Origin: Anthoceros angustus
Lineage: Eukaryota > Plantae > Anthocerotophyta
NCBI GenBank assembly: GCA_010909165.1
Contig: MU008163.1
Location: 1,364,001 to 1,428,000, forward strand
DNA: 64,000 nucleotides
Reading direction: 5' to 3'
The position numbers and the translations under genes were made by a program. Positions within the stretch are counted from its first letter, which is position 1. Each line of letters opens with the position of its first letter. Shown here piece by piece: positions 1,727 through 29,371 of the stretch. The notes below the pieces were generated by a model. That model saw only the letters and a list, made by a program, of their open reading frames with translations. It ran no database searches and was not told where the DNA came from.

Positions 1727-2387
1727 TGTGGACAGCGGACTCCTTGGGGTTGGGAAATAAGCGGGGTTTGTTTTTTTCGTAGGTATGGAGTGTAAAATAA
1801 GGCGGAAAAGGAGGAATAAGCACGGACTCAGACTCGATGCTCGAGTACCGACTCCGGTAGGTAACGGACCCCGGTGCCACTCAAGGACCCCGAACACGCA
1901 ATGAGATCGGATAAGTCCGGACCCCACTCCGGGTCCGAATGGGATAAGTATGCCCAGTAAGGTAATTTAGAAGTTGGGGCGTGAGTTAGACAGAGCGGCG
2001 CCACGTGGACGGCCCTGAATGGAAGACGGGCATGCAGTAGGCCAGGACCATAGGGTTGCCAGTGGTCGTTATAGGTAGGTATTCACGCCTGCACGCTGGC
2101 GCGCACAAGGCCGAGTAGGCGGAAGCGCAGAGAGTAAGCCATGCAGCCTCGAGCCACGACAAATAAGAGCCACCTCCGCTACTTCCGACGGCGAGAGGCA
2201 AGGCGGAGGTCATTCTTCCAAGCAACTTCGCAGCGATCTTCGCATTCTCTCGCGCCGACACCCGCCTCCGGCGTTGTCTTTGATCGCCAGCACCTCGGCC
2301 GCCGACTTCGCGAGGGAAGCAACCGACGCCGCGCCAAGGAACGGACGATCATGGAGCCTCACACTCCAACAGCGGAGATGAGGGAAG

Positions 2388-5096
2388 ATGGGACCCAAGA
2401 AGGCGGCGGAGGTTTGGGAGCCATGGAGCTTGGTGGAGCGCAACATCGCCACCAAGCGCTACCCTACGTGGCTGGAGGAGGCGGGGATTGGTCAAGGAGT
2501 GGCACTGGACGCTTTCCTCGACACAAGCCGCCTAGTCCGGGAGTACGCCCGGAAGATGTTGGCAGCGGCCAACAAGGAGGTTCGCTCTAAGAGCCTTCGA
2601 GAGGACCCTAGGAGGTGGACCGTGGAGGTCCTGAGGGCGGTGTACAACCGGCCAGCGGAGGAAATTGGGGGCGTAGTCCCGGAACCTCTCAAGGCCAGGG
2701 GAAAGATAGAGGCGGCAAAGGCCGCCCTGCTGAAGCCAGGAACGCAACGAACAACCAACGGCCGGGTTGATGCCTGACTTGGCCGGACAGAGGGTGAGCA
2801 GGCCGTGATCATTGTCCATCGAACATGCTCACCAAGGTAGATCACCTTGGTGACACCGGTGTTCCCGCATGCGCCGCAGAGGAAGGAGGCGATCGGGAAG
2901 GATCATCTTCGCCAGATCAATCGTGAAGCTCAAGCCGAGGTGAGAAGCCTCCTCCGTCGGCGTTATCGCCGTTCTTAATTCATGTGGGCACGCGAACCTC
3001 CCAAGGAGGGAGAAGAGGAACGCAGAGGCGGGCCGCCACGGAGGCGTATGGAAGAGCGCGGAGGTGGAGGCCCGTCCGGCAAGCAAGAGGCGGAGGAAGA
3101 CGATCGAGGGAATCCTGACTCCATACGTCTGAGCGGACTCGCCACCGAGGGAAGTGTGGGAGGACATCCCCGCTTCCTCCTCCCGGTGCCCCCACCGAGC
3201 AAAGCAGGAGGTGGAGGAGGCGGGAGGCGTATGGAAGAGCGCGGAGGTGGAGGAAGCAAGCCATGCATCACCACCACCACGACGACGGCACGAGCCCCGA
3301 CGGACTGCCGGGACCAAGAGGCGGAAGGCGTGCCACCCGCCAACGCAAAGACCTGTGACGGCCTGCGTTGCCCCCGCCAACGAGTGGCAAGAAGTCGAGG
3401 AGGCGGAGGAGGCGGAAAGGGACGCCGCCCAAGGAGCGGAGGCCACAAGGAGGCGCATGGTGCCCCCACCGAGTCCTGTCTCCGACCGGGAGAGGCAAAA
3501 GGGTCAGCTCCCGAACCCCCTCACCCCCTCCGAGCCCCAGGAGAAAGAGGGCGGACAAGGAATTGGCGGCCAAGAGGGCCAAAGAAGGTGAGGCTCCGGA
3601 CCTCAGTACTCAGGACCTAAGGGTCCTGATTAGGTCCGGAGAGCCCAGTCCGGACTCACTCCGGGCTGCGGTATGGAGGTCCTTGGCGGACCGAGAGATG
3701 CCCGCCCCCACGACGGACTTCTTGGGGGCCTCACCGGTGGCAGCCGTGGAAGAGACACGGTCCTGCCACCCATGGACGGTATGCCTGGGACTCTACGGAC
3801 GGCCGAGAAGACCTGTGGAGGTGGAGGCCAAGGAGGCGATGGTGCTCCTCCGTGAGCATGGAGGCGCCCAGAGGCAAGGAAGAAGGCGGAAGTCCTCGGC
3901 CGCATCGAGGAAGGCGGAAGGCGGAGGCGGAGCGCGAGGTCCGAGCATTAGAAGACCGGACCAAGGTCCTCCACCGTGAGGAGGAGCGAGGGAGGAGGAG
4001 GCCCAAGCACGGGCCAAGCCTGCACAAGGAGGCGATGGTGCTCCTCCAGGAGCATGGAGGCGGCCCAGGAGGCAAGGAAGAAGGCGGAAGTCCTCGGCCG
4101 CATCGAGGAAGGGAAACGGCGGGAGGCGGAGCGCGAGGTCCGAGCGATTCAGGAAGACCGGACCAAGGTCCTCCAGCTGTGTGAGCAGCTGAGGCAGGCG
4201 CAGGAGGCCCAAGCACGGGCTGAAGATCTCTGCAGACGAAGGGGGGAGGCGCAGAAGGAGGCGGAGAGGGCTCGCGACCTGGCTGAGGCGGCCCGGCCGC
4301 CCAACATCGACCCGAGGCTCACCAAGGCCGAGGAGAAGCGGAAGCGGCGGTCGACCGGGATCACTATCGACGTGATCGAACCGTGGAGGGAGACGGGTCC
4401 GAACCTCTCAAGGCCGAACAAAGCAGAAGTGAGCAAGCATGCCGAGCCGTGAGGAGGAGCTGGAGGTCAAGACCGGAAATAGGGGACCTGTGGTGCACTG
4501 CAGGAGAAGGGGCGAGGGAGCCGGAGGATGAAGGATACCTTGAGCCGCAACTCCAAGACGACGGAAAGCAGGGGTTCTCAACGAGAGAATCCAAGACTTC
4601 GAGCGGAGATAGAGCGCCCAGCCGCTTGAAGACGGAGGAGAATAGGCGACCCAAGGAGTTCGACGCCGCGAGGCCGCAGCAGCAGAGGTGGAGGAAGCCG
4701 AGTCGACGGGGATACCGCCCGCCTGGAGAAGGAAGTGGCGACCGGAAAGGATAAACGGAGGGAAGAAAGCGCTGGAGGAGAACGCCGAGCACCTCTGGCG
4801 GAGGGTGAGCTCGGCTCCATGGCCAAAGAATCATGAGCCGGAACGACGGAGGAGGAGAACGCCGAAAGAAGGCCGCAGGAGGTGGAGGCCGCTTTGGTGG
4901 CATCGAGGAGTCCGCACTGCAGGAGGTGGAGGCCCAAGGAGGCGGCCAGGCCGGACAACATGCCCACCGCCGAGCACCTCGGAGGGAATACCGGTGCCCG
5001 GCCCATGTGGAGGAGGCCAACAAGTCGATTCCGACTTTGCCTACTACCACGCAGAGCTCCTCAAGGCTGGAGGTCTTGCGCCACCCAGGCAGGTGA
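2388..5096 (+). pseudogene. LTR-internal sense ORF of family A: conserved N-terminal domain, low-complexity linker, E/R/A-rich coiled-coil region; frameshifted, end approximate
   Basis: MGPKKAAEVWEPWSLVERNIATKRYP... (2388), ALSPFLIHV at ~2960-2986, coiled-coil-like EAAQEARKKAEVLGRIEEGKRREAEREVRAIQEDRTKVLQ (ORF 3976..4452). Matching peptides are present in the solo copy. Confidence 0.7.
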
Positions 5097-5369
5097 GCGG
5101 ACTTCCGTAAGGGCTCAAGGAGGAGCGAGGGAGGAAGGACCCGGGATGCAGCCCACGGGACCCTAGGAGCTACTGCTTGATGACACAGCAGCAGGGAGAG
5201 CAGGAGGAGCCGGACGGAAGAAGGGTCAGACCTGAGGTAAGCACTCTGCACCTCCGCACGGAAGGAAGGGAGGAGGGCCCTTGGGAGGCCGTGGAAGGGG
5301 CGCAACCGGGCACTCGGGAACCAAGGGAGGCTGGGATGAGCCGTGATCGCCCGTGAGGAGGCAAAACCA

Positions 5370-7345
5370 GAGCGGGTCCGGACTTTGTCCGGACTCGAGG
5401 AAGGTTGGGCCCAAGACCGGACCCCGAGGCAAGTCCGGCCCTCAAGGAAGTCCGACTTAGAGGTCCAGATTTAGTGACGAGACCGACCCCGAGGTCCTGA
5501 CCTGTGGAAGGGTTGGGCCCAGAAGACCGGACCCCAGAGGCAAGTCCGGACCCCGAGGTCCGAACTCCGTAAGGGCTCAAGGAGGAGGAGGCCGGACCCG
5601 GAGGAAGAAGGCCGGACCTAGAGGTCCGGACTCCGGAGTCGAGACGGGGTCCTGAGGTCCAGACTGGAGTGGGGAGAGCCACCATCACCCAGCAGATCCA
5701 TCTTGAGGCTGCAGGGCCCGCCAGAGATAAGAGAGGAGGGAGGAGGACTTAGTGGTGGCCGTTGTCGAGGCCGCAGCAGGAGGCGGAGCGAGGTCCGGAC
5801 CTGTGGTGCACTGCAGGAGAGGTAGGGGTCCCGCCTCGCGGATCATCCGATTGGGTGCGCCGCAGTCGTCAGGGCTCGGCTTTGGGCCGCCGGTGCCAAG
5901 ACGGAATCAGGGGCCATCCCAGCCCCACCACCGACGGCGGAGATAGGAGGAATAGGGAGAATAGTAGGCGGCCGATTAGGTCCGGACTCGAGGAAGGTTG
6001 GGCCCAGGCCGGACGGAGGAATAGAGGTGTAATAAAGGCGCCGACCTTCGGCGTAGTATAAGAGGGCTGAGGTTGCTCTGAGTAAAGCATCTTTCTCTTG
6101 GTGTTGATGCGTCTTCTGGCAAGCTCTTGGGTGCCTTCTTGTTAACGCGAGTCCCGAGTCATCGAAAGCAGCCGACCGAGAGACCGATTAAGGTCTTAGT
6201 GATGACCCTAACGTGTGGTGGTGTGTGCGGAAGCGGCGCTTAGGGACCCTTGCTCGTCAGGCGGTGGCGGCCGATTAGGTCCGGACCGAGTCGAGACGGG
6301 GTCCCGAGGTCCGGACTCGAGGAAGGCCGGACCTAGAGGTCCGGACTCGAGTCGAGACGGGGTCCCGAGGTCCGGACTCGAGGAAGGGAGGAGGAGAGCC
6401 ACCGATCACCCAGATCCATCTCTTGGAGGGCTGCTGCGAGGCCCGAGATAAGAGGAGGAGGAGGACTTAGTGGTGGCCGCCGTTGTCGAGGCCGCAGCAG
6501 GAGGCCGGACCCCGAGGAGAGGTAGGGGTCCCGCCTCGCGGATCATCCGATTGGGTGCGCATGATCGTCGAGCTCGGCTTTGGGCGCGGTGCCAAGGCAG
6601 ATCGGGGGCCATCCGGCCCATGTGGAGGAGGCAAAACCAGAGCGGAGATAGGAGGAATAGGGAGAATAGTAGGCGGCCGATTAGGTCCGGACCCCGGAGG
6701 AACTCGGGAGGCGGAGGAATAGAGGTGTAATAAAGGCGCCGACCTTGGTAGTATAAGAGGGCCGAGGTCGCCTCGAGTAAAGCATCTTTCTCTTGGTGTT
6801 GATGCGTCTTGGCGAGCTCTTGGGTGCCTTCTTGTTAGCAGTCTGAGTCAGCGGTGGCGGCCGGAGGCCGATTAAGGTCTTAGTGAGACCCTAACGTGTG
6901 GTGGTGTGTGCGGAAGCGGCGCTTAGGGACCCTTGCTCGTCAGGCGGTGGCCCAGCGTTGGGCGGGCCGGGCAGTGAGCGGAGGAACTCGGGAGGCGGAG
7001 CGAGGTCCGGACTTAGAGGCCCGGCAGAGCTACGAAGGAGGTCCGGACCGCATAGCCACCCGCGCTTTTCCCAAGGACGATGAGTGTAGTAAGTAGGGTG
7101 AGAGGAACGGACTAGATGGATGAGTGACGAACTTGAACGACGGAGGAGGCCGGACCACGAGGTCCGGACTTAGAGGTCCGGACTTAGAGGCCCAAGCACG
7201 GGCCCTGGTGAACGCTATGCGGGTAGTTAGGTGTGAAACGATAAATAGGCGTGTTGAGACTGAACGGACCCTAAGTAAGGTGAGGAACGATTGAAACGTG
7301 GCAAACGGAGCTACCATTCTCTTGGCGGACCTAGAGGTCCGGACT
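5370..7345 (+). repeat. Dense array of the palindromic motif (G)GTCCGGAC, often followed by CTCGAG or TAGAGG, in the distal family A LTR
   Basis: Many copies such as GAGGTCCGGACTCGAG and GAGGTCCGGACTTAGAGG; counterpart at ~20530-20760 includes tandem GTCCGGACTGTG units. Confidence 0.8.
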
Positions 7346-7499
7346 CACTACAACGACACGGATTGCTTGGCGGTGGCCATCGTGAAAGTCCCGCCACACA
7401 TAGCAACCACATCCTTGTGCTGCTCCGAAACTTAGCCAACTCCCGACCTACAACGACATGATACGTTCATAGGCCCTGCCCCTACGAAGGTAGGCCCAC

Positions 7500-9959
7500 T
7501 GTGGTGACCACATGGGTACTCAGACCCCCTCGAAAAGGAGTGTTTTTTTTGTTTTGTGTTTAAGTTGTGAGAATCGTGTGGAGTTGGAATGTGAAGTAGG
7601 TTAGGAAATAAGAAAAGTCTACTAGAGCCTAGTAGGAGGAAGAGAGTCTAGTCCTGATCCTGGACAGAACCTCGGAGGGTTGGCTGCTCGACCGGTTGCT
7701 AACGCGGTTGCTAGAGCCGTTGCTACAGGACTGCTGTTATGATGAACCGACTTTGGGGTCTGCGTGGTAGCAACCAAGTCGGAGTTATTTTCCGATAAAT
7801 TCGGAAAACCTATTTGGGCGAAATCACAGGGAAATACCCGAACGGGAAGTAACGGGGGGTCCTATTAGCAATTAAGCCCAGCGGCGGGAAGTGACGAGGA
7901 GTATCTTCATGAATCTAAGCGATGAAGATGGCGCCACCGAATCTGATCTGCGGGTCTGAGACGAGCGGACGCTGACGGGGCAGTGTCGCGCTGAGTCATG
8001 AAGGTACCGGTAGCGACAATCGCGCCAAGAACGGCCGAATTTGTTCTGAGTAGCATGCTCGGGAGGATGCGGCGGTGGCTGGAAGCCGGGCAGGGAGCCG
8101 TATGCTGAGCCGGCGGCAACACCCAAGTTACGGTCGGTGGAAGGAGCCAGAGGTGACGGAGCAAATTCCGGCATGAAGGTCCGTGGAGAACGCTCAAGAT
8201 GCAGGTGACCTTAACGAGTGAGCAGGCGCGGTGCAAGTTCTGCCCCAACAATGGTGGGAAGTAATCTGGCTGTGCAGCTCCTGGAGGAGGCTGGGCGGGC
8301 GGTTCAGGTGCTGCGACTGGTGCCGCAGGAAGCTGGGAAGAGCACGGTGAATTGGATAGGGCCAGGTGAAGTGGCTGTAGGAACTGTCCGCAAGATTGGT
8401 GAAAAAGTGGGGTGTGGTCGGGACAGGGCACGGACTGGTGGCACGCACCCTGGAGAAGCTTTCTGAGGAATGTCCTGGAAAACATAGTGATTCTTGTAAC
8501 TAGAGAAGCGGGGAACGTGGTCACAGCCATAAGGGGTCGCTGGGCATGCCGGGAGTAGCCGGGCTGGAACAGGAGTAACACGATGGGAGAGACAGGCCTG
8601 GAATAATCAACCGAAGTGACGCCAGAAGCTGCGGATAGAGGCTGAGACGAAGTGCACCAGGAGTCACTGTCTAACCGTGGTTGCAGGATACACCCTCCAG
8701 GCCTTACACAACTGAGGTGGGTTGGAAAGCAGCGGCTGGCCTGAGCCGAGGCAGGCGACATGTGGCAGTCAGAGGATAAGAACGGGATTTCTATTCCAGG
8801 ATGGTGCCCGGCGCGGAAGCCGAACAGAAACGAGTGGAGGTTATGGTGCGGGTTGAATGAATCTGTGGTCCGAGGGTGGTCTGTTGTGTTTTACAAGTTG
8901 TCCTAAGGACAGAGAGGTGCCAAGCCGAGGGGACAAGACCACGAGTTAACCTTGCTGTATGAGGGTAATTGCAAGATTCCAGTCGGAGTAAATTAAGTCG
9001 GCCCCGCATGTTGAGGTCCTGCACGGGAGCCGAGCGAATTATGCCATAGGGGGATCCTCCAGTCAAGCAGGGTACCAGGGCTAAGCGGAAAATCCGGCGA
9101 GGAAGCATGGCTCCTAAGAAGACCACTCCGGTGGCCATTGAGGCCAGTACCACTGTCCAGTGGCCCAACATGGGCCAAGCAGGAGGCACAAGCTGTCATT
9201 GCTCCCACATTGTCTAGGGTGGAGAATGGCTGGGTCACCAACAAGCTGGATCCCGAGCTGGCTGGATTAGCCAAGTGGATCCTGTGCTCTCAGCTCACTA
9301 AGAAGCTGGACCACATTGCTGACCATTTTCTTGTCTTTCTCTATGAGGTGGTAAGAGGGTCCAAGATAGATTGGGCCAGGATGTTCTATGACATAGCATG
9401 CAAGGAGAGGGACCACTTTACCCTACCATCACCCAGTCCCTCCGCTCTATCTCCCTCTTAATCCACGTCTTCGACCATGCCAAGTTGCTGGGGGGAATGG
9501 AGATGATCTCAACCTTTCACTCCTGGAAGCCTGTGTTTGAGAGGAGGAAGCCCAAAGAGGAGTCAGAGGACGAAGCCATCTCCAGTGGTACTGGGAGTGA
9601 AGATGAAAAGTCTGAAGTGTCCATGAAGAGGGATGTGGCTGTTGCTGAGGTAGCAGCCGCGGTTGCTAACAAAGCAACCGGGGTTGCTAAGACCCCAACA
9701 GGCACCAAGAGGGGTCGGACTGAGCAACAGGGGACTCCAACCACACCTAGAGCCACAAGAGCACGCACTGGGAGCTCACATGAACAAAAGCAGGACAAGG
9801 GAAAGGCCAGGGCAGCACCAGTTCCACTGGAGCCTGTGGCTGGGGAAGCCACAGGTCAACAGGAGGAATCAGCCCAACCCTTGGGCACAGTCGAGCTGAT
9901 CCGAGAAAGTGACTACCTGTTCAAGGAAGTGTCTTTCAAGTATACCCCGGAAGTTGTGG
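7500..9959 (+). mobile_element. Probable giant LTR of a second Gypsy family (B), truncated at 9959
   Basis: Begins TGTGG followed by a T-rich then purine-rich stretch like the family A LTR start, and contains a homologous ORF. No second terminus is present to confirm it. Confidence 0.5.
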
Positions 9960-9969
9960 TGCAACACTA
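9107..9969 (+). pseudogene. Family B ORF, homologous to the family A and C LTR ORFs; truncated by the 9960 junction
   Basis: MAPKK start at 9107; ENGWVT...FLVFLYEVVRGSKIDWARMFY...ALSP(L)LIHVF...LL...SWKP across ORFs 9138..9461 and 9398..10006. Confidence 0.75.
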
Positions 9970-11378
9970 TTCAAATTATTCCACTTGTCAACATGTGTTT
10001 GTGTGACTTGAGCTGCTCCAGAAGGTGATGAGGCTCCAGCAGCCGGTAGGACAGGTTGTGGAGATGTGCCATCAACCACTGCCCATACTCCTCTTGCGCG
10101 AAGGTTGGACATCATACATACACGCCATACTTCAAACCGAGTTCCATTAAACTGTCTCTTTCCTTCAATTCCTGTGAAGGTAGGAGCGGTTTGTGGAAGC
10201 CATTGTAATGTATTGATGGTTGTCTAGAAGGCGGATTTGTAGGAGGAGGTCTTGGAGGAGGTACGGTGGAGTTGGTGGAGGACCGGATGGTGGACTGGAG
10301 GGTGGTGTTCCTAATTCCCTTGCTTCCAAGTCTAACCTACGACGTAAGTGAGGGGAAAGAGGGAAGTTAAAGAGGTAATCCCTCGTTATCATAAAAAAAC
10401 AGTCCTCGGCCAACAGACAGGTAAGCAGTTAGGGTTTCGTGGATTTTCAGCAGGAAATAGAGAAAGAAAACTAACTTGCTGAATTATTTTCTAGGGCATT
10501 GGTGGGTTCAAAGGAACGGTTACCAACCGTCTGGCTGGCAGCCAAGCAAAAATGTGGGGTAGCAACAAAGATTCCAGCACTGTGAAAATCTAGAACCCGC
10601 ACCATGCCTAGAAGCTGGAAATAATAAGGTCACGAAGATCCTTATGAGAGGAACGAGAATCTCTTTAAAGATCCGGAGTTGTTGAGTCGACTTCTTAATT
10701 TCAGATGAGAATCTGATGGCAAACTTGTGAATTTTAAAATCTGTTGAATCCAATCGTTTGGAAAAAGATTCCTGTCACTGGACAGTAGAGTTCAATAATC
10801 CTTCCAAAATATCAATTGAATTTGAAAGTGCGCTCGTGCTCTTTGTGCAGGACTGAAATGCTGGAGAAGATTGCCTCACAGAGGATTGGTTAGGTCTGTA
10901 TAGGCACCCACAGTAATCACAAGGAATTAGAGCAGAGGTAGGAGATGCTGCAAAAACCTTGTTGCGATATCTGTAAAGCAGGTATTTTTCTGAGAACAAG
11001 TAATCTCGTTCAGCTTCAGATTCAGCACTAGTCCAGGGAATGCTCGAGCGAATAGGCGATCTGTAGATAGGTCTAGAAGAGGATTTCACAAAACCTCCTC
11101 TACCACCAGATCCGTAGTTAGACCTGTTCCTCGGCATCGTAGCTAGAGCATAGTCACCCGTATGGGCTCGATACCATAACAAAAATAGGAGACGCTGGAT
11201 TTATGTCAAGACAACTTGACATCATGTGTGAGCACAAAGGAGAGAACAACACGAGCCTAGAATGCTTGAGTGTTCATTAAGTGAATAATAATATAAAGAG
11301 TATTGAAAAGTATTTATATGTAAGTAACCCTAAGTTCGCTATGCGTCTAGGTTACAATAAACAAGGCATATTTTAACA
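9960..11378 (-). mobile_element. Copia-1 5' portion: 5' LTR 11177-11378, tRNA-Met PBS 11166-11176, leader, start of gag
   Basis: Minus strand reads TGTTAAAATATG...TTGTTA then TGGTATC(A)GAGC; collinear with 30110-31499; followed by TGTTT at 11379-11383. Confidence 0.9.
10775..11137 (-). CDS. 120-aa upstream ORF in the Copia-1 leader, unknown function, contains CDYCGC
   Basis: ATG at 11137, about 30 bp after the PBS: MPRNRSNYGSGGRGGFVKSS...LIPCDYCGCLY...; frameshifted copy at ~30910-31254. Confidence 0.4.
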   Translation of the reverse strand: MPRNRSNYGSGGRGGFVKSSSRPIYRSPIRSSIPWTSAESEAERDYLFSEKYLLYRYRNKVFAASPTSALIPCDYCGCLYRPNQSSVRQSSPAFQSCTKSTSALSNSIDILEGLLNSTVQ

Positions 11379-14300
11379 TGTTTCTTGCTACCGCCTATTC
11401 CAACTCAATGGGATCGTGGCTAGAGCCCCTTGTGTGCTCCTTTGTTGGCTGTTCATCCCCTGAGAATAGTCCCGGCCCTCTTGGCCACGAGGCATATCCT
11501 CTACACATGCCTCCCTTACCTGCGGGAGGAGGATTTCACCCTCTAGCCCCTTGATCTCCAACTTTGGGGCTGGACTCCCCCATACTCTACCAATCCGCCA
11601 TGGGCGCCATCCCCCATGGCTACATCTCCTCTAGGAGTAGAGGCGTCAGCCTCCCCAACTCCCGCAGCGCCTTCCACCACCTCCGTCGCAACTCTCCTTA
11701 CAGGAGTAGGGCTACTCCCTACGCCGGTAGGTACCCTACCTACATCGCCAGGTCCCTCACCTACCATCACTTCCGGGTGTCTTTCTCCGACAAGATCTTT
11801 GGGGCTGGGAGCACCACTTGGGGCTCCTTATCCTGTGCTTCCCTCATCATCAAAACCTCTTCCCACTCCGATTCCTCGAGTCATCTCCACTTCCCTCGTC
11901 CTCAAAGTCTAAGGCCCTTGGCTCCACTTTCATAAGCTCCCTCCTGTCATCATCGTGGGGTCCCAACAATCTTCTCTTAATGAGGCGTGCTACCTCATTC
12001 TTGGCCTTGACAACCTTATTATGAAGGGTTGCCCCAACCTCTTATATTGCATCTCTAGTTCATCCGACTCCTTAGGCCATTCCCTTCTTTGCACCTACCC
12101 TTGTAGGCATTCCGCTCCAACGTCGGCTCTCCCACACGGAGGTGTAGAGCTACGTTCTCCACCGTGGCACCGTGAAGCTGCTGTGCCATCTTCTTTTGTA
12201 GGGCATAGTCCGCCTCGAATCTCCTCTTCCAATGACTAGCATTTGGTGCACCATGCCCTCCGCTTTCCTCTTCTCTCCTTCAGCCTTCACCTGTGGTTTT
12301 CGGCCTCCCATGATTTCTGAGCTCGTTCTAATTCCCTTTCCTTCTTCCCCAAACTACGGCGAGTTTCCATAAATCATCTTGGACACACCTACCTCCCATC
12401 GTAGGGTGTCCCTTTCTCTCCAATTCACTCACCTTGAGAGCAAGTGCTTGCTCGCCGCCCTTTGCTCTTTGGCCTTGCTCTCACTCTCTTTGGTCAGTAA
12501 GAGCTATTTCTAGTCTCCACTTTTGTGGTAGCCTCTTTAAACTTCGCATCCATTCCTCTCTCGCATCAATAGTCTTGAATGTGGCACTCAATCTATCCAC
12601 TTGCTCCCTCGGTCCTCGACCTCTGTTTGGATCCGTCGGCCTCCCCAACTCCAGCGCCTTCCACCACCTCGTCGCAACTCTCCTTACGGAGTAGGGCTAC
12701 TCACGCCGTGGGTACCCTACCTACATCGCTGTGTCCCTCACCTACCATCACTTGTGTCTTTCTCCGACAAGATCTTTGTGGGAGCACCACTTGGGGCTCC
12801 CTTATCCTGTGCTTCCCTCATCATCAAAACCTCTTCCCACTCCGATTCCTCGGAGTCATCTCCACTTCCCTCTTCTTCAAAGTCTAAGGCCCTCGGCTCC
12901 ACTTTCATAAGCTCCTTCCTGTCATCATCATGGGGCCCTAGCAGCCTTCTCTTAATGAGGCGTGCTACCTCGTTCTTGGCCTTGATAACCTTATTATGAA
13001 GGCTGACCCCCAACCTCTGATATTGCATCTCCAGCTCGTCTAGCTCTTTAGGCCATTCCCCTTCTTTGCACCTACCCTTGTAGGCATTCCGCTCAACGTC
13101 GGCTCTCCCACACGGAGGTGTAGAGCTACGTTCTCCACTGGCACCGTGAAGTGCTGTGCCATCTTCTTTTGTAGGGCATAGTCCGCCTCGAATCTCCTCT
13201 TCGAATGACTAGCATTTGGTGCACCATGCCCTCCGCTTTCCTCTTCTCTCCTTCAGCCTTCACCCACATGGTTTTCGGCCTCCCATGATTTCTGAGCTCG
13301 TTCTAATTCCCTTTCCTTCTTCCCCAAACTACGGCGAGTTTCCATAAATCATCTTGGACACACCCTACCTCCCATCGTAGGGTGTCCCTTTCTCTCCAAT
13401 TCACTCACCTTGAGAGCAAGTGCTTGCTCTCACTCTCTTTGGCTGTAAGAGCTATTTCTAGTCTCCACTTTTGTGGTAGCCTCTTCGCTTGCATCCATTC
13501 CTCTCTCGCATCAATAGTCTTGACAATGTGGCACTCAATCTATCCACTTGCTCCCTCGGTCCTCGACCTCTGTTTGGATCCGTCGGCCTCCACATGCCCA
13601 AAGCCCTCATTCTTTCTTCCAACTCCAACAACTTTGCCTCGGCCCTTGCAACTTCTTTGCTCCTAGCCTCTCCTTCTCGTGTTGCCTCTCGGGCCTTACT
13701 TGCCCTCAACTCTTCACAGCTTTCCACCAAGATACCAGCCATCCTTGTGGCTTCCTTCACATCCACCTGCTCAAACGCCCACATAGCCGGACTAACTCCC
13801 CTAGCACTCCTAGTTCAGCCTCATGGCATGTGCTCCTATTATTCCATAACCCATGGAACCACATCCCCTACCATGGTTCCATCCGACTAGCCCCTCTAGG
13901 ATCCAGCCTCCTCCTAGGCACCGCCTTAGCATGTCCGCCCGTACTTGTCCCGGTGCCTCACCCACCGTGTAGGGACCTCTGTCGGCCTCCTTCTCTTGGT
14001 GCCCGTTTGCACCTATCTCCGTAGATCCCCGACTTACATCCGTAGGGATCTCCTAAGAACACCTTTCTCCTCTTCCATGTCGAGGTTTTGGCCCTCCTCC
14101 GGCATAGGGGCCTCTTCCTCCCTCACGGGATTTCTCCTTCTACCTTCATTCGCCTGCGACGATTCGGCTCCTCATCAAGGTTTATCTCCAACTCCTCTTC
14201 CTCTTCTTCATCATAGACTCGGACTTGGGTCCCTTTCCTAGCCTCTCCCAACTGCTCTATCGACCTAAAGGGCCTTCTCATGGCAAGAGGGGTGGGCACC

Positions 14301-15090
14301 TCCTCCGTAGGCACCAACTCTACCATATCAAAGGGCGCCCACGAGTCGGACAATTCCTCAACACTCAATAACCCCTCCACTCCCCACAACTGGACCAAGT
14401 AAGTGGACAAGTAGCATAGCCTGGGAGACTCCGCATCATGGCTGTTAGGCTTCAAAATCTTCTCCCTATGATAGACGTAAGCATTGTACATAATATTCCC
14501 CCAGTTCGGCTTCGCACCCTGTGACACTTTCCACACAAAAACCAGCAAGGCATCGCTAAAGTAGGTCTTCCGCTGATGATTAATAAGACCGATGACCACT
14601 TTGGCGAAGGTTCGCCACTTGAATTCCTTGATGGCCACTGTGGGCCAGCCATTCTTCGTTTTGCACTCTCCCCGTGTAACATGGTGGCCCTTCCTAAGTG
14701 AAATGGGAGCCATCTTCTTCCCATCCTTAGCCTTTTCGTTATCACAATCCCATCTCCCTCTTGGTAGGTCGCCCATAAACGCCTTATACTCGAACCGCCC
14801 AAAGACTGGGTCCGTTCTCGCGTTCCGCTCTGGAAGGGCTGCCAATTGCCTTGGAGTCCGGCAGAGGCTCACATAGCACTTCTCCACAAGCTTGAGATTG
14901 TCAGAGGCCCAATGGCGGCCATATGCCCACCGGAGTCAGATGTTCTCCTCGCCCATACCGAAAATCAACGGATCCTGTGAGCACACTTGGCCCACAAAAC
15001 ACTCAAACATAGGCATGTTGATTTGGCGGATCCTCGGCGTGGCCTCTCTTCTTCTTCTCTTCCCTTTGTTAGGGGTAGGTGTCTTCCCAT
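11379..15090 (-). pseudogene. Family C long ORF (conserved domain, coiled coil, acidic tracts), interrupted near its 3' end by Copia-1
   Basis: MGKTPTPNKGKRRRREAT start (clean in ORF 50348..50728); KNGWPT...LLVFVWKVSQGAKPNWGNIMY...YLSTYLVQLW..EGLL...SWAP (14123..14887); coiled coil EELRASKAREATREGEARSKEVARAEAKLLELEERMRAL (13458..13784). Confidence 0.75.
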
Positions 15091-15556
15091 GGCTCCTTCC
15101 AACTTGGTTGCACGAGAGGAGATGAGAGGTGTACTCCTTCTTCCTTTTCTCGGTCCTTAGCCCACCCACGCGTTTACCGGCAACCTATGACCGTAGGTTG
15201 CTCCTCTCAACACAATCTCTAAGGCCCTTTTGCTTCCTTCCCAAATTGCCACAGTTCTCACAATCTTGAGCTTATGATGGAGCTCCTCCTTCTAGTAGCT
15301 CGCAACCCTCTAGCTCACATGCACTTGTCACGGTGTAATCATTCGGCTACCTTGTCTTAAGTAGGGAACACAAGCTTGTTAAGGAAGGAGATGGAGGGTG
15401 GCTGCCAAGTTTGGGAAGGTATACTACTGCCACCACTGTTGATGTCTGCACGTGGCGCCATCTCCACCGCTAAACTTTTAAGTAACTTCCCCAAGTATAC
15501 CTAGGGCTCTTATTCTCGCTACTTAAACTAGGGGTTCAACATTAATTACTAATTCC

Positions 15557-18479: not shown

Positions 18480-18829
18480 ATTAATTACTTTAAGTGTTTT
18501 TTACTTAATGCTTTTAAGTAAATCTTAGTTAAGAGCTAGTTTTTGCTAGACTAGTTTTCTTGACCCTTTTGGTCGAAAATCACCCCTAGTTCATAGTGAG
18601 TGGGAGTGATAAAATAGCTTACTATTAAGGCACTCTTCACTAGGGCACCTAGGACTTAATAATTTATTTAGTCCTTAGAGCACTATGTAATTTCTTCTAG
18701 TAGTTATTTAATTAGTTAGTTGTTACAACCACTTGATAGTTACAACAACCTTGCCTACATAAAGGCATGTACTTCCTATGATGAATCAATGCAACACATA
18801 TTGCTTGAGCTAGTGTATGATTCTCATCA
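18480..18829 (+). mobile_element. Diverged LTR fragment related to the Copia-2 LTR (3' end, plus orientation)
   Basis: Ends GATTCTCATCA like the Copia-2 LTR and shares TTCATAGTGAGTGGGAGTGAT and TTAGTTGTTACAAC with its reverse complement; copy ends ~54128; 5' end not defined. Confidence 0.65.
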
Positions 18830-19581
18830 CTCCCCTCCATGACATCTCCAACATAGTGTTACCGGATTTCAATGTATTTTGTGCGGGCATGAGATTTGGG
18901 ATTTGCCTCAAGAGCTAGAGTGACATATTGTCAAAGGTAATTTAGGTGACTACTACTCCTGGTCAAGATCCTTGAGGAAGCTACGCTCCCACTCTGCCTT
19001 CTTTGAGGCGTCGCTCAGAGCTTTATACTTTGCCTATGTGGAGGAAAGAGCTATGGAGATTGCTTTTTAAATGACCAATTCACCATGGCTGAGGAAAGAA
19101 CAGCGTATGGGTAGAAATGGGTTTCTCCGACAAAAAGGGGTTATGGCTAAAATCCCGTCTTTTTTTGGGCGAAAACGCGTGTTTGCTTTTTCCTAGGCTT
19201 TTTTTGAGGGGTTTTGCTAATTTAAATGTGGTGTTCAAACCTATGGCATCACATCTTGCATGTTCATTTGGTCACAATGTGCCACATCCATGGTTGGGCA
19301 CCGCGATTTTGATGGGGTGATGTGGTGGGAGGAAGACCTCGGGCCCCCAAGACTACTCTCTAGTGGCCACATTTATCCCACTATCATTGAGCACAAAAGG
19401 CTTTGTCCCATGAGACTTACATTTAATAAGAAACCAGCTTCTAGGGCACGAGCACACTCCTTCTCACACACCCAAACCCCTCAAACAACTAGGGTCACCA
19501 CAACTCACTCTCAAGCAAGAGCCACGCCCCCTCGCACCTGGTCCGCCAACAGATAACGGCATACGCTACTACCATTGTAGG

Positions 19582-22500
19582 TGTGGCGCGACTTTCGATG
19601 GCCAGTAGGCGCCATCCGTGTCGTTGTAGGAAGAAGTCCGCTCCCAAGGGAATGATAGGCTCCGCTGCTGCTTCGTGATTCCTACCGCACTTAGCGCCTG
19701 CTCACCCCAACGCACACATACTCCTAACTACTCAACGCTCACCGTGACAGCCCGTGATGGCTAAACGCTTAGGGACCTGTCAAGGCCAGATCGCTCACAT
19801 TCACACACACATCCACCCTTCCTCTCTCCTCACGCTACACTCATCGCCTTAGAAAAGACGCTGGTTACACAACCCCGACCTCCTCCGCTCGCTGGCCTCT
19901 CCGTCCGGCTCAGACGCCTCCCGAGTTCCTCCGCCTCCTCACGCCACACCGTCGGCCGGGTCGCGGCTCCGGACGAGCACGGGTCACCACCCTTCCCCGC
20001 ACACACCACAACACGCTAGGTCCGCCACTGTGACCGATCAATCTCCCCGAGCCGCCGTGCTCGCTGACTCAGACTCACGTTAGCAAGAAGACACACAAAG
20101 GTCTCGCAAGAACGCGATCAACACCAAGAGAAAGATGATTTATTGAGCGGCCTTAGCCCTCTTATACTACGCCAAGGTCGCCTTTATTACACCTCTATTC
20201 GAGCCGAGGGCCACCTGGTGCCTAACCACCGCCTACTACCCCGCTTATTCCGCCTATCGCTTGGGGCCGGGATGGCCCTCATTCCTTCTTGGCACCGGCG
20301 GCCCAAAGCCGAGCTCGTCGCGCACCCAATCGGATGATCCGCGAGGCGGACCCTTCCTCTTCCCGAGGGTCTGCCAGCGCGCCACCGGCGGCCTCGACAA
20401 CGGCCACCACCAAGTCTTCCTCGCCTCCCTCTTCTCTCTCCGGCCTCGCGCAAGGGCCTCCAAGGGCCGGATCCGGGCTGGTGGACCGTGGCTCTCCCCA
20501 CTCCCGAGTTTGGACCTCGTGACTGCCTCGACCGAGTCCGGACCTCTAGGTCCGGCCTTCCTCCGGGTCCGGCCTCCGGCCCGGCCGAGTCCGGCCCCTG
20601 GGACCGGATTGCCTGGGTCCGGCCTCGACCCAACCCTTCCTCGGGTCCGGACTGTGGTCCGGACTGTGGTCCGGACTACCAGAGTCCTGGATCCCTAAGT
20701 CCGGACCTCGGGGTCGGACCTCGGGATCCGGCCTTTCCTCGAGTCGGGACAAAGTCCGACCTCGTGCCTCGGGCATGCCTCCTCACCGGCTGGTCACGGG
20801 TTCATCCACCGAGCCTCCTTGGTTCCCGAATGCCCGGTTGCACCCTTTCCTTCCTCTCCAAGATCCTCCCTCGTCCTTCCATGCGAGGGTGCCGAGGCTT
20901 ACCTCCTGTGGCGCCTTCCTCCTCCGCCTCCCCGCTTCCTCCTCGCCACTGCCACACAAACAGCCCTAGGACTCCTGCCAGGCTGCCCCGGTCCGCCCTC
21001 TCTCGCCCTTCCATCCTTCCGAAGTCCACCTCCGCCTAGGGTGGCGCAGACCTCCAGAGCCTTGAGGAGCTCTGGTAGGCGGTCGGAATCGACTTGTCAA
21101 TCGCCTCCTCCACATGAGCCCGAGCACCTGACTTCTCCTCCTCGGAGGTGCTCCAGAATCGAGCAGATCGCCCACCACCGCCTGCCTCGGGCTGCTTACC
21201 ATGAGGCGGGCGGACTTGAGGCCGCCAAGGCCGCCTCCTACTCTTGCAACCTTCGCCGCCGACGCTCTCCTCCTCCTCCGGTTCCTCCGCCCGCTTATGG
21301 GCCATGGAGCCGAGCTCCCTTCGCCTCGCAACCGGACGAGCAATCGACCTTCCTCCAAAGGCTTTCTTCCCCTCGTCTATTCTTTCCCGAGGTCCTCCAC
21401 TTCCTTCTCCAGGCGGGCGGTATCCCGTCAGGCTCACGGCTTCCGCCACATCCCGCCGCAACCTTGCGACGCCGAACTCCTTGCCGCCTATTCTCCTCCG
21501 TCTTCAAGCGGAGCTGGAGGCCCACCTCTCGCTCGAAGTCTTGGATTCTCTCTGAGAACCCCCGCCGCCTGATGCATCTTGGAGTTGCAACCCAAGGTGT
21601 CCTTGTCCTCCAGCCTCCGCCGCCTTCTTCTACCTCCCGCACTGCACTCGAGGTCCCCAATCTCCCGTGCTGGCCTCCGATGCCTCCTCACGGCTCGGCC
21701 GTGCTTGCTCCATGACCACTTGCTCGGCCTTCGATTGGCCGGCCTGCCGCCTCCACCGGCCCGATCACGGAGTGATCGCGATCGGCCGCCGTGGCCTCCG
21801 CCTCCTGGCCACCTTCACCGAGCCTCCTTGGCTCGTCCGCCTGGCCCAGATCCCGCCTGCCTCGCTTGCGCCCAAGGCCCTTCGCCTCGCCCGCCTCGCA
21901 GAGGTCCTCCGCCCGCTGGCCTCCTGGCCTCCGCCTCCTCCTCCACTGAAGGAATTTGGTCCGGTCCTTGCGGATGGACGGACCTCCCTCTCCGCCTCGG
22001 CGTTTTCCTTCCTCAATCCCGCCGAGAGCTTCCTTCCTTCTCGCCTCCTGGCTCCTCCAACCGCCTCCGGAGGAGTACCATGCGCCCGGTGGCTTCCACC
22101 TCCGGGCCTTCTCGCCATCCCGCAGATTCTGTGAGCATACCGGCCCATGACGGTAGCTGTGACCCTGTGTTTCCTCCACGGCCGCCGTGAGGCTCCCACA
22201 AAGTCCGTGGCGGGCGGCATCTCACAGTCCGTCAAGGACCTCCATACCGCAGCCGAGTAAGTCCGACTGGGTTCTCCGACCCAATCAGACCCTTAGGTCC
22301 CGAGGCCGAGCTGAGCTTCCTCCTTGGCCCTTTTGGCGCGAGCTCCTTCTCGCCCTTTTCCTCCACAGGGCTCGGCGGAGGTGATGGAGTCCGGAGCACG
22401 CCTTTGCCCCTTCACAGCCGGCGGGACCCGGCTCTGGATCGGTGCTGCCGGTGTCCTCCTGCTCACAGGCGTCCTTCGCCCCTCCTCTGCTTCCTCGCTT

Positions 22501-24590
22501 CTTGCCACTCGGCGGGGAAGATCTTGCTGGCCGGGGGTGCGTTGGTAGCCGTGGTCTTGCGCCTCCCTCGTCCGGCGGGCTCTCACCGAGTGATGGCCGT
22601 GGCGGGCCGCTGGGGTCGGGCCGCCGGATCGGCTGCCTGGTTGGGGCACCAAGGAGGAGGCGGAATTGCTTCCCATACTGGGTGGTGAGGGGTCCGCGTG
22701 CGATGGAGTCCGAATCCTCCCGCCTCCTCCCGAGTCCGCTTGGTTTTCACGACTGCCTCCTCCGGCCTTGCCCGCCTCCACTTCCGGAGGGCCTCCAGCC
22801 TTTTCCGAGCGCCGCCAAGCTCTCCTTCCCGAGGAGTTCAAATGCCCCCATACATGGATCGTATGGGGATGCCCCATGGAAGGCTTCGCCCCGAGCTATG
22901 AGCCTCGCTAAACCGGGCGAAGATAATCCTTCCTCCCGCCTCTTCCCCGGCTGCAGCAGAACACTAGATTATCACCAAGGTGATCCACCTTGGTGAGTAG
23001 GTTCCAGTGACAATGATCCGCCACCGCCTCGACTCGACCGTCCAATGTGCCTGACATCGCCCAACCACAGTGGTCCGCTGGCCCTGTGCCTTAGCATCGC
23101 CGTGGTCGGCCCTATCTTCCCTTCGCCTTGAGGGGCCCGCACCACTCCCTCTTCCTCCTTGGGCGGTAGGCCGCCTCAGACCTCCAAGGTCCATCGCCTT
23201 GGGTCCTCCGGAGGTTCTTGACCGCACCTCCTTATTGACCGCCAAGATCTTCCGCAAACTCCCGACCAGAGTGACATCAAATGTCCGCCATTTGGAACAC
23301 ATCCAAATGCCACTCCCGCACCACTCCGCCTCGGAGCGAGCCCAAAGTCCGGATAGCGCCGGTCACAATGTTGCGCCCACAAGGTTCCATGGCTCCCAAA
23401 CTTCCGCTGGCTTTTGGGTGCCATCGCCTTCTCCTCCTTGGTTGCGGTAGCCGCTTGTAGAGGCTGGCAGCGCGTTGCGCCTTCTTCCTCCGCTGCAAGG
23501 TGAACACATTAGATTATCACCAAGGTGATCCACCTTGGTGAGTAGGTTCCAGTGAATGATCCGCCACCGCCTCGACTCGACCGTCCAACAGTGCCTGGAT
23601 ATCGCCCAACCACAGGTCCGCTGCCCTGTGCCTTAGCATCGCCGTGGTCGGCCCTATCTTCCCTTCGAGGGGCCCGCACCACTCTTCCTCCTTGGGCGGT
23701 AGGCCGCCTCAGACCTCCAAGGTCCATCGCCTTGGTCCTTGAGGTTCTTGACCGCACCTCCTTGACCGCCAAGATCTTCCGCAAACTCCCGACCAGAGTG
23801 ACATCACAAATGTCCGCACCATTTGAACACATCCAAATGCCACTCCCGCACTAATTCTCCGCCTCGGAGCGAGCCCAAAGTCCGGATAGCGCCGGTCACA
23901 ATGTTGCGCCCACAAGGTTCCATGGCTCCCAAACTTCCGCTGGCTTTTGGGTGCCATCGCCTTCTCCTCCTTGGAGCCGCTTGTCTGAGACCGGGCACGT
24001 TGCGCCTTCGCCGCTGCTCACGCCCGACCAACGGTGAGCCGTGCAAGACGCCCGAGTGTCCCACGAGATACCGCCAGAGCCGGATCATGAGCGCAAGAGA
24101 TCGCGAGAATTGTCTCGAGGTCACAACAAATGACCTTCTTCCGCGACCACGCCGGAGTAACCGTGAGGGCGCCTCTTCCACATGCTGGCCGAGTGCATGG
24201 CTTACTCCCCACGCCACAGACTGGCCTTACCCCACTGCTGCCCTACGCCAGCGCGTGAATACCGCTATAACGGCCTCGCAAGGTTACGGCCCCGACTCAC
24301 GCATGCCCGCCCCTCCACTGTGGTCGCCCACGCCGCGCTTAGTCCGTCCTTACGCCCAACTTCTAAGTTACTTTCATGATTTATCCCGCCTCGGTCCCGG
24401 AGTGGGTCGGACTTACCCGTTACCTTGTCGCCGCCATCGAGGTCTAAGTACCTCACTCCGAGTCAGTATACTCCGAGTGCCCCGAGTGCTAACCGGCTTA
24501 TTTCCTCCTTTTCGCCTCATTTTATCCTTCGCTCCCACAAAAACAAAATCCTACCTAATTTCTAACCCCTGTGGAAGTCCGTAGTCCACG
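19582..24590 (-). mobile_element. Solo LTR of Gypsy family A (diverged subfamily), 5009 bp, with 5-bp TSD GTAGG
   Basis: GTAGG at 19577-19581 and 24591-24595; termini TGTGG.../...GTCCACG; the empty site ACCATTGTAGGTCTACA is seen at ~54845 and ~55967; no pol, PBS or PPT inside. Confidence 0.92.
21036..23957 (-). pseudogene. LTR-internal ORF in the family A solo LTR (frameshifted, N-terminal part duplicated)
   Basis: MAPK...EVWEPWNLVGRNIVT, RKILAVNKEVRSR, DPRRWTLEV, SPRWITLV, IHVWG, GIEEGKRR, HVEEAIDKSIPTAYQSSSRL all match peptides in 2388-5096. Confidence 0.7.
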
Positions 24591-26747
24591 GTAGGTCTAC
24601 ACCTACAAGGGTAGGTCGCCCAGTACACACACATGTAGGGACCCCTAATGTACAGCGTGACTTCCTTTACTCCATAATTTTGAGGACTTGGCCCAGCCTC
24701 CACCCCTCGGTTGATGCAGTTGGGACCCCTCCCTTAGGCTCGACTTGGGCCTTCTCCTAACTCCTAAACTCTACTCCTCCAACATTCAACCCCACACCAT
24801 CCAAAATCTCAACTTAACTCATCACCATCCTCAACATTCAACTCAATGCATCATATTTGACACTCGATGACTCAATACTTATTCTCCTAGTCTAACCTCA
24901 CTTCAAGCTCAGCTGACTTGCCTTTCTACTTCTAGCGCCTAGGGGTCGCCTACAAGCCAACAAGTTCTTCCTTGGGCAAGTTGCTATGAGTTTGCACCAG
25001 ACAGAGTATCTCTAGGAGTCTTTCCCCGCGCCCCTCAAGTCGAGGTTCTCAGGCACCACCACGCACCCAAAGCAAAGCAATTTTACAACAACCATTCACA
25101 AGAGGAGCAACTGCGGAGGCACTACTCGCGGAGCAAGCCCTCCGCCAAGCACTCCGACCATAGCCACTTTCCCCCTCTACGGACATTTTGTCACTGTACC
25201 GACAACGGCACCTCACATGAAGCAAGACACTCACCACGCAAGGGAAGCGCAATCACGGTGCTTTATTTCTCGAACTAGTCCTCTTATATAAGACATATAC
25301 ATATGGCCTCTCTTGGGCCGCGCCTCCCCCCTCCTTTACTGACTTCCGCTACACAATCTAATATCGCTTGACCTTTCCAAAAGTCTAATTAAGAGCCTCC
25401 TCGGGAACCACAATTGCTAGTGGTCTTTGAATAATCCTATAAACCTCACCCACTTGCAACCATCATGCCTTCCTCTTTAAGGCTCCCATCCTACAATAGT
25501 TCTAACCACAAAGCGGTTCCTAAGGCATCAATTACAATTCTTAGCGAGCTAGCCACTTTGGAGTTCTTCAAGACCCTAGGGGTCTTACCCATATCTCCCA
25601 CATGTTTTAACAAACATAGGCCATTTGATTTATGTCAAGACTTGACATCATGTGTGAGCACAAAGGAGAACAACACGAGAGCCTAGAATGCTTGAGTGTT
25701 CATTAAGTGAATAATAATATAAAGAGTATTGAAAATTATTTATATGTAAATAACCCTAAGTTACTATGTCTAGGTTACAATAAACAAGGCATATTTTAAT
25801 ACTCCCACATAACCTAGGCGATATCTGAATTGTGCCTAGCGTTAGGTAATTTGTCTCCCAGCGTAGAATCTCTTAAGTACGGCGCCATGTGTTGTTAGCA
25901 GTCGTAAACATAGCCTTTGCGATCATCCAACGAAAGAGTCCATGGCTACAAGGAGGCGGGCGCACTGTGAGGTGAGCAGGAAACACCGGTGCTCAAGAGA
26001 AAAGAAACGTGCCACAAGCCAACTGTAAATGCGGAGGAACATGGAGTGGAAAGCAGTTTAGTTTCCAACGGTGATGTCCGGTACGGATGGGAGATTGAGG
26101 GCCGGTCAGCGCCATAGTGAGAAACAAGTTCGAGGCGACTCAAGGCGGTGAAGAGGAGCCCATCGTAGAGCTATTGGAGAAAAGCTACTGGACCCTCTTA
26201 GAAGAATGAGGGTCCATTGGCTAAATCTTTGTGAACATGCATTTGCCGAGGCGAAGAGGAAGAGAAGGGAAGGAAGAGTATTTGCGAAAAGTCGTGAGCA
26301 AGGACTATGAAGAAGGAAGCTCCACAAAATGAAGGACGGAGAAAACCGCGACTAGGTAAGGCAAGACAAATTCATCCGTGCTTATACTTGGGCAGGCGGT
26401 GTGGGAGGACTGTAAACTGACCAACTGTGAACTTGTAGTGTGCCACATGGCACATCGATGGTCCAGTGGAAAGAAGGCGGCCTGTGATATGCAAACCTAA
26501 ATTAAGAGCAGCTTGAAGACCTGGGGACTTAGGTCCCTACCCCCCCCCCACACCCATCAGGTCAGACGATCACCTATCACCTACAATACCCTTAGGCGGA
26601 TATTTGAGCAGTCCCAAGGACTCCACATGCATAGTGTGTTTACGCTTGGGAAGCGCCCGTCAATACATCGCAATGTTTTCAGCGGTTGGGACATATTCAA
26701 CCTTGATTACTCCTCCGGATACGGTGTCTAGGATACGGTGGTGCTTA

Positions 26748-27670
26748 ATCTCGAAATGTTTGGTTCTTGCATAAGCAGCAAACCTAAATTGGTTACCAAA
26801 AGCTAAGTCAAACCTAAATCTCGAAATGTTTGGTTCTTGCATGAAAGCAGCAAACCTAAATTGGTTACCAAAGCTGAATCAAACCTAAATCTCGAAATGT
26901 GTGGTTCTTGCATGAAAGCGGCAAACCTATATCTTGGTAGAAAAGGCCAAAAGTCGAGGATCCTTTGAGGTAACGATAAATTCTTTTAACGACTGCCCGG
27001 TGCATTCGTCCGGCTTTTCTAAGAACTATGAGGCGACTGGCTGAAAAGTCTGTGGGCAAGGACTATGAAGAAGGGAAGCTCCCACAAAATGACGAAGGAT
27101 GTAGAAAACACGACTAGGTAAGGCAAAGACAAATTCATCCGTGCTTATACTTGGGCAAAGTGTGTGGGAGGATCAAACTCGACCAAGCTGTGAACTTGTA
27201 GGTGCATGGCACATCGATGGTCCAGTGGAAAAGGAAGCAAAGTATATGCAACCTAAATTAAGAGGCTTGAAGACACAGGGACTTAGGTCCCTACCCCCCC
27301 ACACCCATCAGTCGACGATCACCTATCACCTACAATACCCTTAGAGCGGATAGTCAAGTCCCCGAGTCCCAAGGACTTCGTGTATAGTGTGTTTCGCTAA
27401 GCGCCAAATACATCGCCAATGTTTTCAGTTGGGACATATTCAACCTTGATTACTCCTCCGGATACGGTGTCTAGGATACGGTGGTGCTTAATCTCGAAAT
27501 GTTTGGTTCTTGCATGAAAACCAAACCTAAATTGGTTACCAAAACTAAATCCAAACCTAAATCAAAATATTTGGTTCTTGCATGAAAACGGCAAACCTAA
27601 ATTGGTTACCAAAGCTGAATCCAAACCTAAATCTCGAAATGTGGTTCTTGCATGAAAGCGGCAAACCTAT
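26748..27670. repeat. ~72-bp tandem repeats in the Copia-1 RT/RNase H junction (two blocks, ~26748-26930 and ~27490-27670)
   Basis: Unit TCTCGAAATGTTTGGTTCTTGCATGAAAACAGCAAACCTAAATTGGTTACCAAA...CCAAACCTAAA, about 2.5 copies per block; also at ~58120-58300. Confidence 0.85.
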
Positions 27671-29281: not shown

Positions 29282-29371
29282 GAAGAAGAAGAAGAAGAAG
29301 AAGAAGAAGAAGAAGAAGAAGAAGAAGAAGAAGAAGAAGAAGAAGAAGAAGAAGAAGAAAAAGAAGAAGAA
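29282..29371. repeat. (GAA)n microsatellite, poly-Ser on the Copia-1 coding strand just before the protease motif
   Basis: 26 perfect GAA, one AAA, then 3 GAA. Confidence 0.97.

Follow-up and report, generated by a model that had tools for sequence, protein, structure and literature searches.

An accessory protein domain shared by three repeat families of Anthoceros angustus and located, in one of them, inside the long terminal repeat

The stretch of Anthoceros angustus DNA analysed here (contig MU008163.1 of assembly GCA_010909165.1, positions 1,364,001 to 1,428,000 of the forward strand; 64,000 nucleotides, hereafter the window) consists of stacked long terminal repeat (LTR) retrotransposons with numerous local duplications, which are 85–96% identical. 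According to a preliminary description, made from the sequence alone, three dissimilar families with giant LTRs, designated A, B and C, carry one and the same uncharacterised protein domain. The motifs of this domain were found where they had been reported, at 2734–2989 (+) in A, 9216–9541 (+) in B and 14665–14330 (−) in C, each within an accessory open reading frame (ORF), and the comparisons of the sequences indicate that it is common to the three families at the protein level, A and C being linked through B. As to the giant LTRs, that of family A proved to be a true one; B is a truncated single fragment, and for C no LTR start was found. Many of the frame breaks in the ORFs may be assembly errors, since the X1 short-read contigs differ from the window mostly by small gaps (in one example 2 substitutions and 8 gaps over 380 bases), and this limits every protein test of the A, B and C ORFs reported below.

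Family A enters the window with the 3' end of a Gypsy pol gene, part of its internal region (1–1690, +), in which Pfam and the translation identified the zinc finger and core of an integrase (Integrase_H2C2, E = 1.7e-10; rve, E = 3.3e-5, under the cut-off). The integrase stops about 22 bp short of a polypurine tract (1711–1726, +), which leaves no space for a chromodomain; no reverse transcriptase or RNase H of A, from which its lineage could be placed, is present in the window. The tract is followed by a 3' LTR, A1 (1727–7398, +; 5672 bp, TGTGG...CCACA), which matches end to end, with 63–70% identity, a solo LTR, A2 (19582–24590, −; 5009 bp), bounded by a CCTAC target duplication; the corresponding empty site is visible in another copy of C. 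Family A therefore shows a purine tract, TG...CA ends and a second copy with target duplication, as a giant LTR should. Its net length is about 4.5–4.8 kb, A1 amounting to about 4.8 kb when two local duplications are subtracted. The end of the integrase is itself doubled (1–285 and 1289–1574, 86% identity), and such local duplications may be assembly artefacts; one joint in an X1 contig, which jumps back 949 bases in C, suggests that some of them may be real.

The accessory ORF of A1 (2388–5350, +, delimited by ORF and alignment analysis; frame-broken, 3' end approximate) lies in sense orientation 3' of pol and starts 660 bp into the LTR. It comprises a basic start, an N-terminal half, the shared domain, a linker and a coiled coil at about 4030–4330. 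Downstream of it, a putative TATA-like box followed by a poly(A)-like signal is present at 6057–6086 (+) and repeated at 6752–6781; in A2, which holds the ORF with the shared domain at 23066–22828, the equivalent boxes at 20166 likewise come after the ORF. Because these boxes follow the ORF inside the LTR, the gene would appear to be situated in the unique 3' region (U3). The order in A is thus LTR start, 660 bp, ORF, a cluster of palindromes, TATA-like and poly(A)-like boxes, and LTR end; A2 shows that a solo LTR retains the accessory gene. The palindrome, GTCCGGAC, occurs in 16 copies around the promoter of A1 (5376–7344, +), altogether 18 times in A1 and 5 times in A2, and nowhere else in the window (23 observed, 0.67 expected; some copies stem from local duplication).

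Family B consists of one fragment of about 850 bp (9107–9959, +), of which the window holds no second copy; it contains an MAPKK start, the domain and an acidic/basic linker, and is cut at 9960 by a Copia element, D. The N-terminal half present in A and C is missing, the start being about 33 codons ahead of the domain as compared with about 120 in A and C. The similar starts, M(G/A)PKK, which had been noted for A and B do exist (2388 and 9107), that of B lying in a different frame from its domain. In family C, the first copy, C1 (11388–15090, −; 3' end approximate), has a basic start, the domain, an acidic linker and coiled coils at 13814–13461 and 13208–12741; it retains an open frame of 270 codons and includes a local duplication of about 1 kb in the ORF region. 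Two further copies are C2 (33976–37248, −), which covers the 5' part of the ORF and the upstream region with 91.8% identity to C1, and C3 (49611–52951, −; 91.7%). The region of the domain in C1 (14330–14700) differs from C2 and C3 by 5–8% substitutions, compared with about 2% in the upstream non-coding DNA, and has far fewer frame breaks; C1 perhaps represents a different subfamily, or polishing was uneven.

The domains of B and C are similar to each other (BLASTP E = 3e-6, 24% identity over 67 amino acids). Frameshift-aware alignment of this pair scored 76, the best of 60 shuffles reaching 50, and in the opposite direction 86, which none of 200 shuffles attained; it takes in the NGW motif, the LVF..V..G.K..W block, the LS..L..(V/F) block and SW.P. 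Scores of B were 49–54 with A1 and 52–64 with A2 (0/200 shuffles each), and a single open piece of A2 matched B with E = 2e-5 (BLASTP; 35% identity, 52 amino acids). The alignment of A with B is fuller than had been seen previously, since the middle block 'LLTKVDHLGD..LVF' of A aligns to 'LTKKLDHIADHFLVF' of B. When B was compared with 254 tiles of the window, C1 scored 95, A2 77 and A1 56; of the 243 background tiles one was B's own tail, and among the remaining 242 the score of A2 was reached by none and that of A1 by one. The earlier statement that the families lack similarity at the DNA level stands as far as BLASTN is concerned, which finds none, although the DNA of the B and C domains faintly aligns (0/500 shuffles); the domain DNA of the other three pairs was not above chance (56, 85 and 170 of 500 shuffles).

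Conservation of a protein over diverged DNA suggests selection on the domain, and the long-term selection proposed in the preliminary description is in this respect a reasonable reading, although a test within families gave no signal in the domain, as discussed below. Among 18 regions tested for 3-periodic substitutions, three gave p values of 0.011–0.019, one of these being non-coding. The N-terminal proteins of A1 and A2 still match at about 30% DNA divergence (score 199, 0/100 shuffles), which is partly expected from the DNA identity.

All three ORF products have a basic start and, as described previously, an acidic or low-complexity linker behind the domain; heptad-like charged helices were detected in A and C with a crude score. 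Hydropathy maxima over 19 residues in the sense frames were 0.93 (A), 1.19 (B) and 1.59 (C, off-frame), and no transmembrane helix was apparent in the three ORFs by this measure, although frame breaks could conceal a segment. Pfam was blank in the three ORF regions, so that the absence of recognisable gag, pol or transmembrane env motifs was confirmed; matches to capsid or zinc-knuckle families were found neither there nor in the upstream DNA, and the ORF of A lies after pol. The domain gave no match in NCBIfam, and A, B and C none to PF10536 (PMD) or PF04195 (Transposase_28). Word-indexed protein searches with C, with B and with an alignment of 8 pieces returned nothing, the last one covering proteins of 231–2000 amino acids; in viral contigs there were 0 matches among 124. 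Several candidates were rejected. A profile of B and C against 1.84 billion representatives yielded one match only, a bacterial-type carbohydrate-binding repeat protein, which is a repeat artefact; the single locus among 35 pattern matches of a metagenome scan proved to be the shadow frame of a gene for a bacterial transporter; and the winged helix of KIN17 (PDB sequence search, E = 0.003–0.05) was taken as chance or as a faint lead.

An AlphaFold2 (AF2) model from an alignment of seven rows showed a hairpin and five helices, with low confidence (predicted local distance difference test score, pLDDT, 54.5); a model from a single sequence (pLDDT 32) was discarded. The seven-row model had no fold match in PDB, BFVD or a VIA-wide search, which says nothing on the novelty of the fold; when this low-confidence model was compared for the DUF1985 (VANC) fold, its top VIA match (Z 5.1) was to unrelated helical bundles. 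The Atlas, a language-model resource, placed a cluster containing ATHILA first for C (0.90; 17% of 59 members) and a Transposase_32 cluster fifth (0.89), and with B as the query a Transposase_32 cluster came first (0.90; 100% of 50 members). According to the calibration of the tool, such hits count as leads. Some of the clusters bear a Streptophyta label, in line with a plant host, to which the Copia and Gypsy domains of the window also point. The designation "uncharacterised" thus holds for Pfam and NCBIfam, while all weak leads go in the direction of Transposase_32/ATHILA. The layout of the helical motifs may resemble that of Transposase_32 and of unnamed bryophyte repeat proteins.

The setting of C is complicated by insertions of Copia D. 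A complete D (25608–31499, −; 5892 bp), recognised by Pfam, BLASTN and its ends, has LTRs of 200 bp and an AAACA target duplication; the 5' part of another one (9960–11378, −) comprises the 200-bp LTR, a tRNA-Met-type primer site and gag (DUF4219, E = 4.4e-5, under the cut-off). The primer site of D is of the Met type, and its LTRs terminate in TA, not CA. The possibility that the gag-pol of D is the internal region of C was ruled out by D's own LTRs and target duplication. The D copies seen, at 25608–31499, 9960–11378 and 56968–59955, have identical flanks, and therefore a unit of C and D was probably duplicated in tandem, or redundantly assembled; of its copies only one bears the A2 insertion. 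In another copy, the end of D is without contig cover while C is covered.

An LTR-like end of C, split by A2, extends from TGTGG at 25602 over a TATA/poly(A)-like box at about 25290 to CCACA at 19227 (19227–25602, −). With D and A2 subtracted, C consists of the ORF, about 310 bp, the TATA-like box, CCACA and about 4 kb more, in the same order as A; these 4 kb contained no gag or pol (Pfam, 72 frames across the three families). If an LTR began about 600 bp ahead of the start codon, its net length would arithmetically be about 4.7 kb and thus A-like, but a purine tract with TG was sought upstream of the ORF and not found. TGTGG directly after the insertion site of D fits an LTR of 1.4 kb with the ORF just outside. 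C could be either a U3 gene of an element devoid of gag-pol or a gene of the internal region that directly precedes a 1.4-kb LTR; contig cover at this end did not discriminate.

Candidates for an internal promoter are two short DNA motifs, which lie about 380–400 bp ahead of the start of C (15449–15488, −). They recur in similar form at equal distance in A1, A2 and C1–C3, the patterns having been picked post hoc; upstream motifs of B were not significant. A motif behind the presumed ends of the LTRs of B and C (7 matches; 4/100 shuffles) was no better than chance and was dropped. Observed-to-expected ratios of CpG were 0.87–0.89 in the LTRs of A and 0.54–0.73 in the regions of C and D.

Further features of the window should be mentioned. 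Between A1 and the ORF of B, the DNA at 7399–9100 is rich in GC and CpG, with CCACA at 7512 and no Pfam match; a frame of 327 codons is present on its minus strand at 7907–8890. The X1 contigs are deep over the domain of B and absent over 8000–8800, the uncovered stretch carrying no evidential weight. Another Copia element (42770–48742, −; matches to Pol_BBD, SH3_retrovirus and RVT_2) has a local duplication of 1.6 kb inside. A repeat with 16-bp units containing GTTGCAACC is located at 38074–38249, 39616–39793, 40476–40638 and 49435–49603; it sits at both points where copies of C break off, and possibly represents the ends of another element. Very deep contig cover over a short stretch within C (18577–18830 and 53876–54145) is likely due to a small high-copy element, with inverted matches at 38274–38368, 39818–39912 and 40663–40757.

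The domain is probably related, at some distance, to Transposase_32/ATHILA, an accessory domain carried by Gypsy retrotransposons of plants. The 3' ORF of Athila in sunflower carries Transposase_32, which is related to PF03078, and is predicted to be localised in the nucleus (PMC11728184); for the Athila domain and for VANC, oligomerisation via coiled coils has been predicted (PMC13547354), VANC binds repeats within its own element (PMC12844716), and PMD and VANC are structurally similar (bioRxiv 10.1101/2024.09.27.615353). Gypsy elements of plants commonly carry extra ORFs, chiefly with the domains PMD, Transposase_28 and Athila ORF-1, and in non-chromoviruses LTRs may reach about 5 kb (PMC6317226, PMC7264820, PMC4408406, PMC11963269); distant retroelements sharing extra ORFs have a precedent (PMC5408684). 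We therefore propose, with a probability of about one half, that the three repeat families possess a remote Transposase_32/ATHILA-type accessory domain, that its protein is an oligomeric self-regulator acting in the nucleus, and that in A the gene is situated in U3. The nuclear and regulatory part is inferred from the architecture, the parallels to Athila, VANC and PMD, the confinement of GTCCGGAC to the LTRs of A and the retention of CpG there. Reverse transcription would copy the A gene to both ends of the element, and each solo LTR formed by recombination would retain it, as A2 exemplifies. A promoter within the initial 660 bp of the LTR could drive transcription of the gene, or the protein might be made from a subgenomic RNA; the poly(A) signal of the LTR itself would end the transcript. 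The product might then assemble as an oligomer on the DNA or chromatin of its own element and serve as an activator or anti-silencing factor, with the GTCCGGAC cluster as a candidate target in A.

A number of results weigh against this proposal. Of the pairwise similarities, those of B with C and with A were significant, but that of A and C was not when B was left out; with C as the query, A was not recovered in frameshift-aware alignment or in the control with 254 tiles, and the N-terminal match of A and C was borderline (2, 17 and 3 of 200 shuffles for C1, C2 and C3). A frameshift-aware search with B missed the indel-rich copies C2 and C3. Pieces of A, B and C, as frame-broken queries, did not match PF20167 or PF03078 in Pfam at E ≤ 1 or E ≤ 10; shuffled proteins reached the Atlas scores 4–10 times in 100, and the shared features (135–152) were under the 170 typical of true members. 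The domain gave no 3-periodic substitution signal (p = 0.83 for A1–A2; 0.26 and 0.45 for C). No similar palindrome cluster is present in B or C, and palindromic LTR repeats are found in other plant elements (PMC4728375). Unbiased tests of the upstream motifs shared by A and C were borderline (10, 14, 28 and 38 of 300 shuffles; in a second test, 45 and 267 of 500), and the similarity of their TATA regions was not significant. Since the ORF of B, which is flanked upstream by CpG-rich DNA, has a CpG ratio of 0.22, and C is depleted in CHG (0.38–0.54), carriage of the domain does not track escape from methylation.

Some of these results would be accommodated by other explanations. The domain could constitute a separate, undescribed family unrelated to Transposase_32, ATHILA or PMD, which a number of Gypsy families have in common in a plant lineage that has been little sampled. 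The blank results in Pfam, NCBIfam, the word-indexed searches, the 1.84 billion representatives and the fold searches would be explained in this way; yet with such short, shallow and error-prone queries database searches cannot show absence, and the Atlas pointed for both B and C to one pair of families, so that we regard this explanation as doubtful. An Athila-type protein might also act in the cytoplasm or in the virus-like particle, as an RNA chaperone or scaffold, in nuclear import or in the targeting of integration, the palindromes binding host factors. For plant extra ORFs, the functions of which are not known, roles as chaperones or in import have been suggested (PMC7264820), and the different methylation footprints of A, B and C would agree with such an explanation; the basic N-termini, the lack of a detected membrane helix and the predicted nuclear localisation of the sunflower ORF (PMC11728184) make such a role unlikely.

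It is quite unlikely, finally, that the ORFs are decayed passengers, derived from an old Athila-like gene and free of selection, and that the gene of A came to lie in U3 by chance, through a shift of the purine tract. The many frame breaks, the missing 3-periodicity in the domain and the truncation of B would be in accordance with decay, but many of the breaks may be errors of assembly, C1 has kept its 270-codon frame, and the N-terminal proteins of A1 and A2 match in spite of their DNA divergence. We thus prefer the remote Transposase_32/ATHILA-type nuclear self-regulator. A further reading, which appears improbable at present, would regard the LTRs of some Gypsy families in a plant lineage as self-contained cassettes with a promoter, an accessory gene from an undescribed domain family, the palindromic targets of its protein and a poly(A) signal; each solo LTR would then continue to produce the activating or anti-silencing protein of its family, and elements without gag-pol, such as C, would keep this gene only.

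The function of the extra ORFs of plant LTR retrotransposons is open (PMC7264820, PMC6317226), and those described in the literature cited sit in the internal region, while a U3 gene provides two copies per element; in the literature searched, chiefly outside subscription journals, no report of an ORF inside a plant LTR was found. A U3 gene also survives the formation of solo LTRs, which is the usual host route for removing such elements. In A, one unit of 5 kb provides both a protein and its candidate target motif, so that the idea of anti-silencing is directly testable. Annotation tools which take LTRs as non-coding would overlook the gene of A.

Retroviruses offer one comparison, since sag of mouse mammary tumour virus (MMTV) lies in U3 and nef of human immunodeficiency virus (HIV) overlaps it. 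As in A, a protein gene in U3 is doubled by reverse transcription; the proteins are unrelated and the viral LTRs far shorter, whereas here an ORF of 3 kb occupies a plant-type Gypsy LTR. VANC of the VANDAL DNA transposons, and PMD-C/MAIN, are analogous in that an element-encoded coiled-coil protein is associated with repeated short non-coding motifs (PMC13547354, PMC12844716, bioRxiv 10.1101/2024.09.27.615353), but there was no match in sequence or, with the low-confidence model, in fold, the host element of VANC belongs to class II, and binding is hypothetical here. PMD (PF10536) and Transposase_28 (PF04195) of Ogre, Tat and Retand elements resemble the present ORFs in that an extra ORF of Gypsy elements encodes a globular domain together with a coiled coil (PMC4408406, PMC11963269, PMC6317226), and a DNA-binding or regulatory role has been proposed for them as well; neither sequence nor Atlas provided a lead to them, and the Retand ORFs are antisense and internal, those of A, B and C sense. 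Closest are Transposase_32 (PF20167) and ATHILA ORF-1 (PF03078), which like A have a sense ORF after the integrase of a Gypsy element without room for a chromodomain (PMC11728184, PMC6317226, PMC13547354), share the coiled coil and the lack of a membrane helix, and furnished the top or near-top Atlas clusters for B and C, although Pfam gave no match at the thresholds applied. The 3' ORF of Athila is described as following pol and preceding the 3' LTR. That of A, by contrast, lies within the LTR itself, past the purine tract, and is kept in a solo LTR; the LTR location of the shared domain is firm in this one of the three families.

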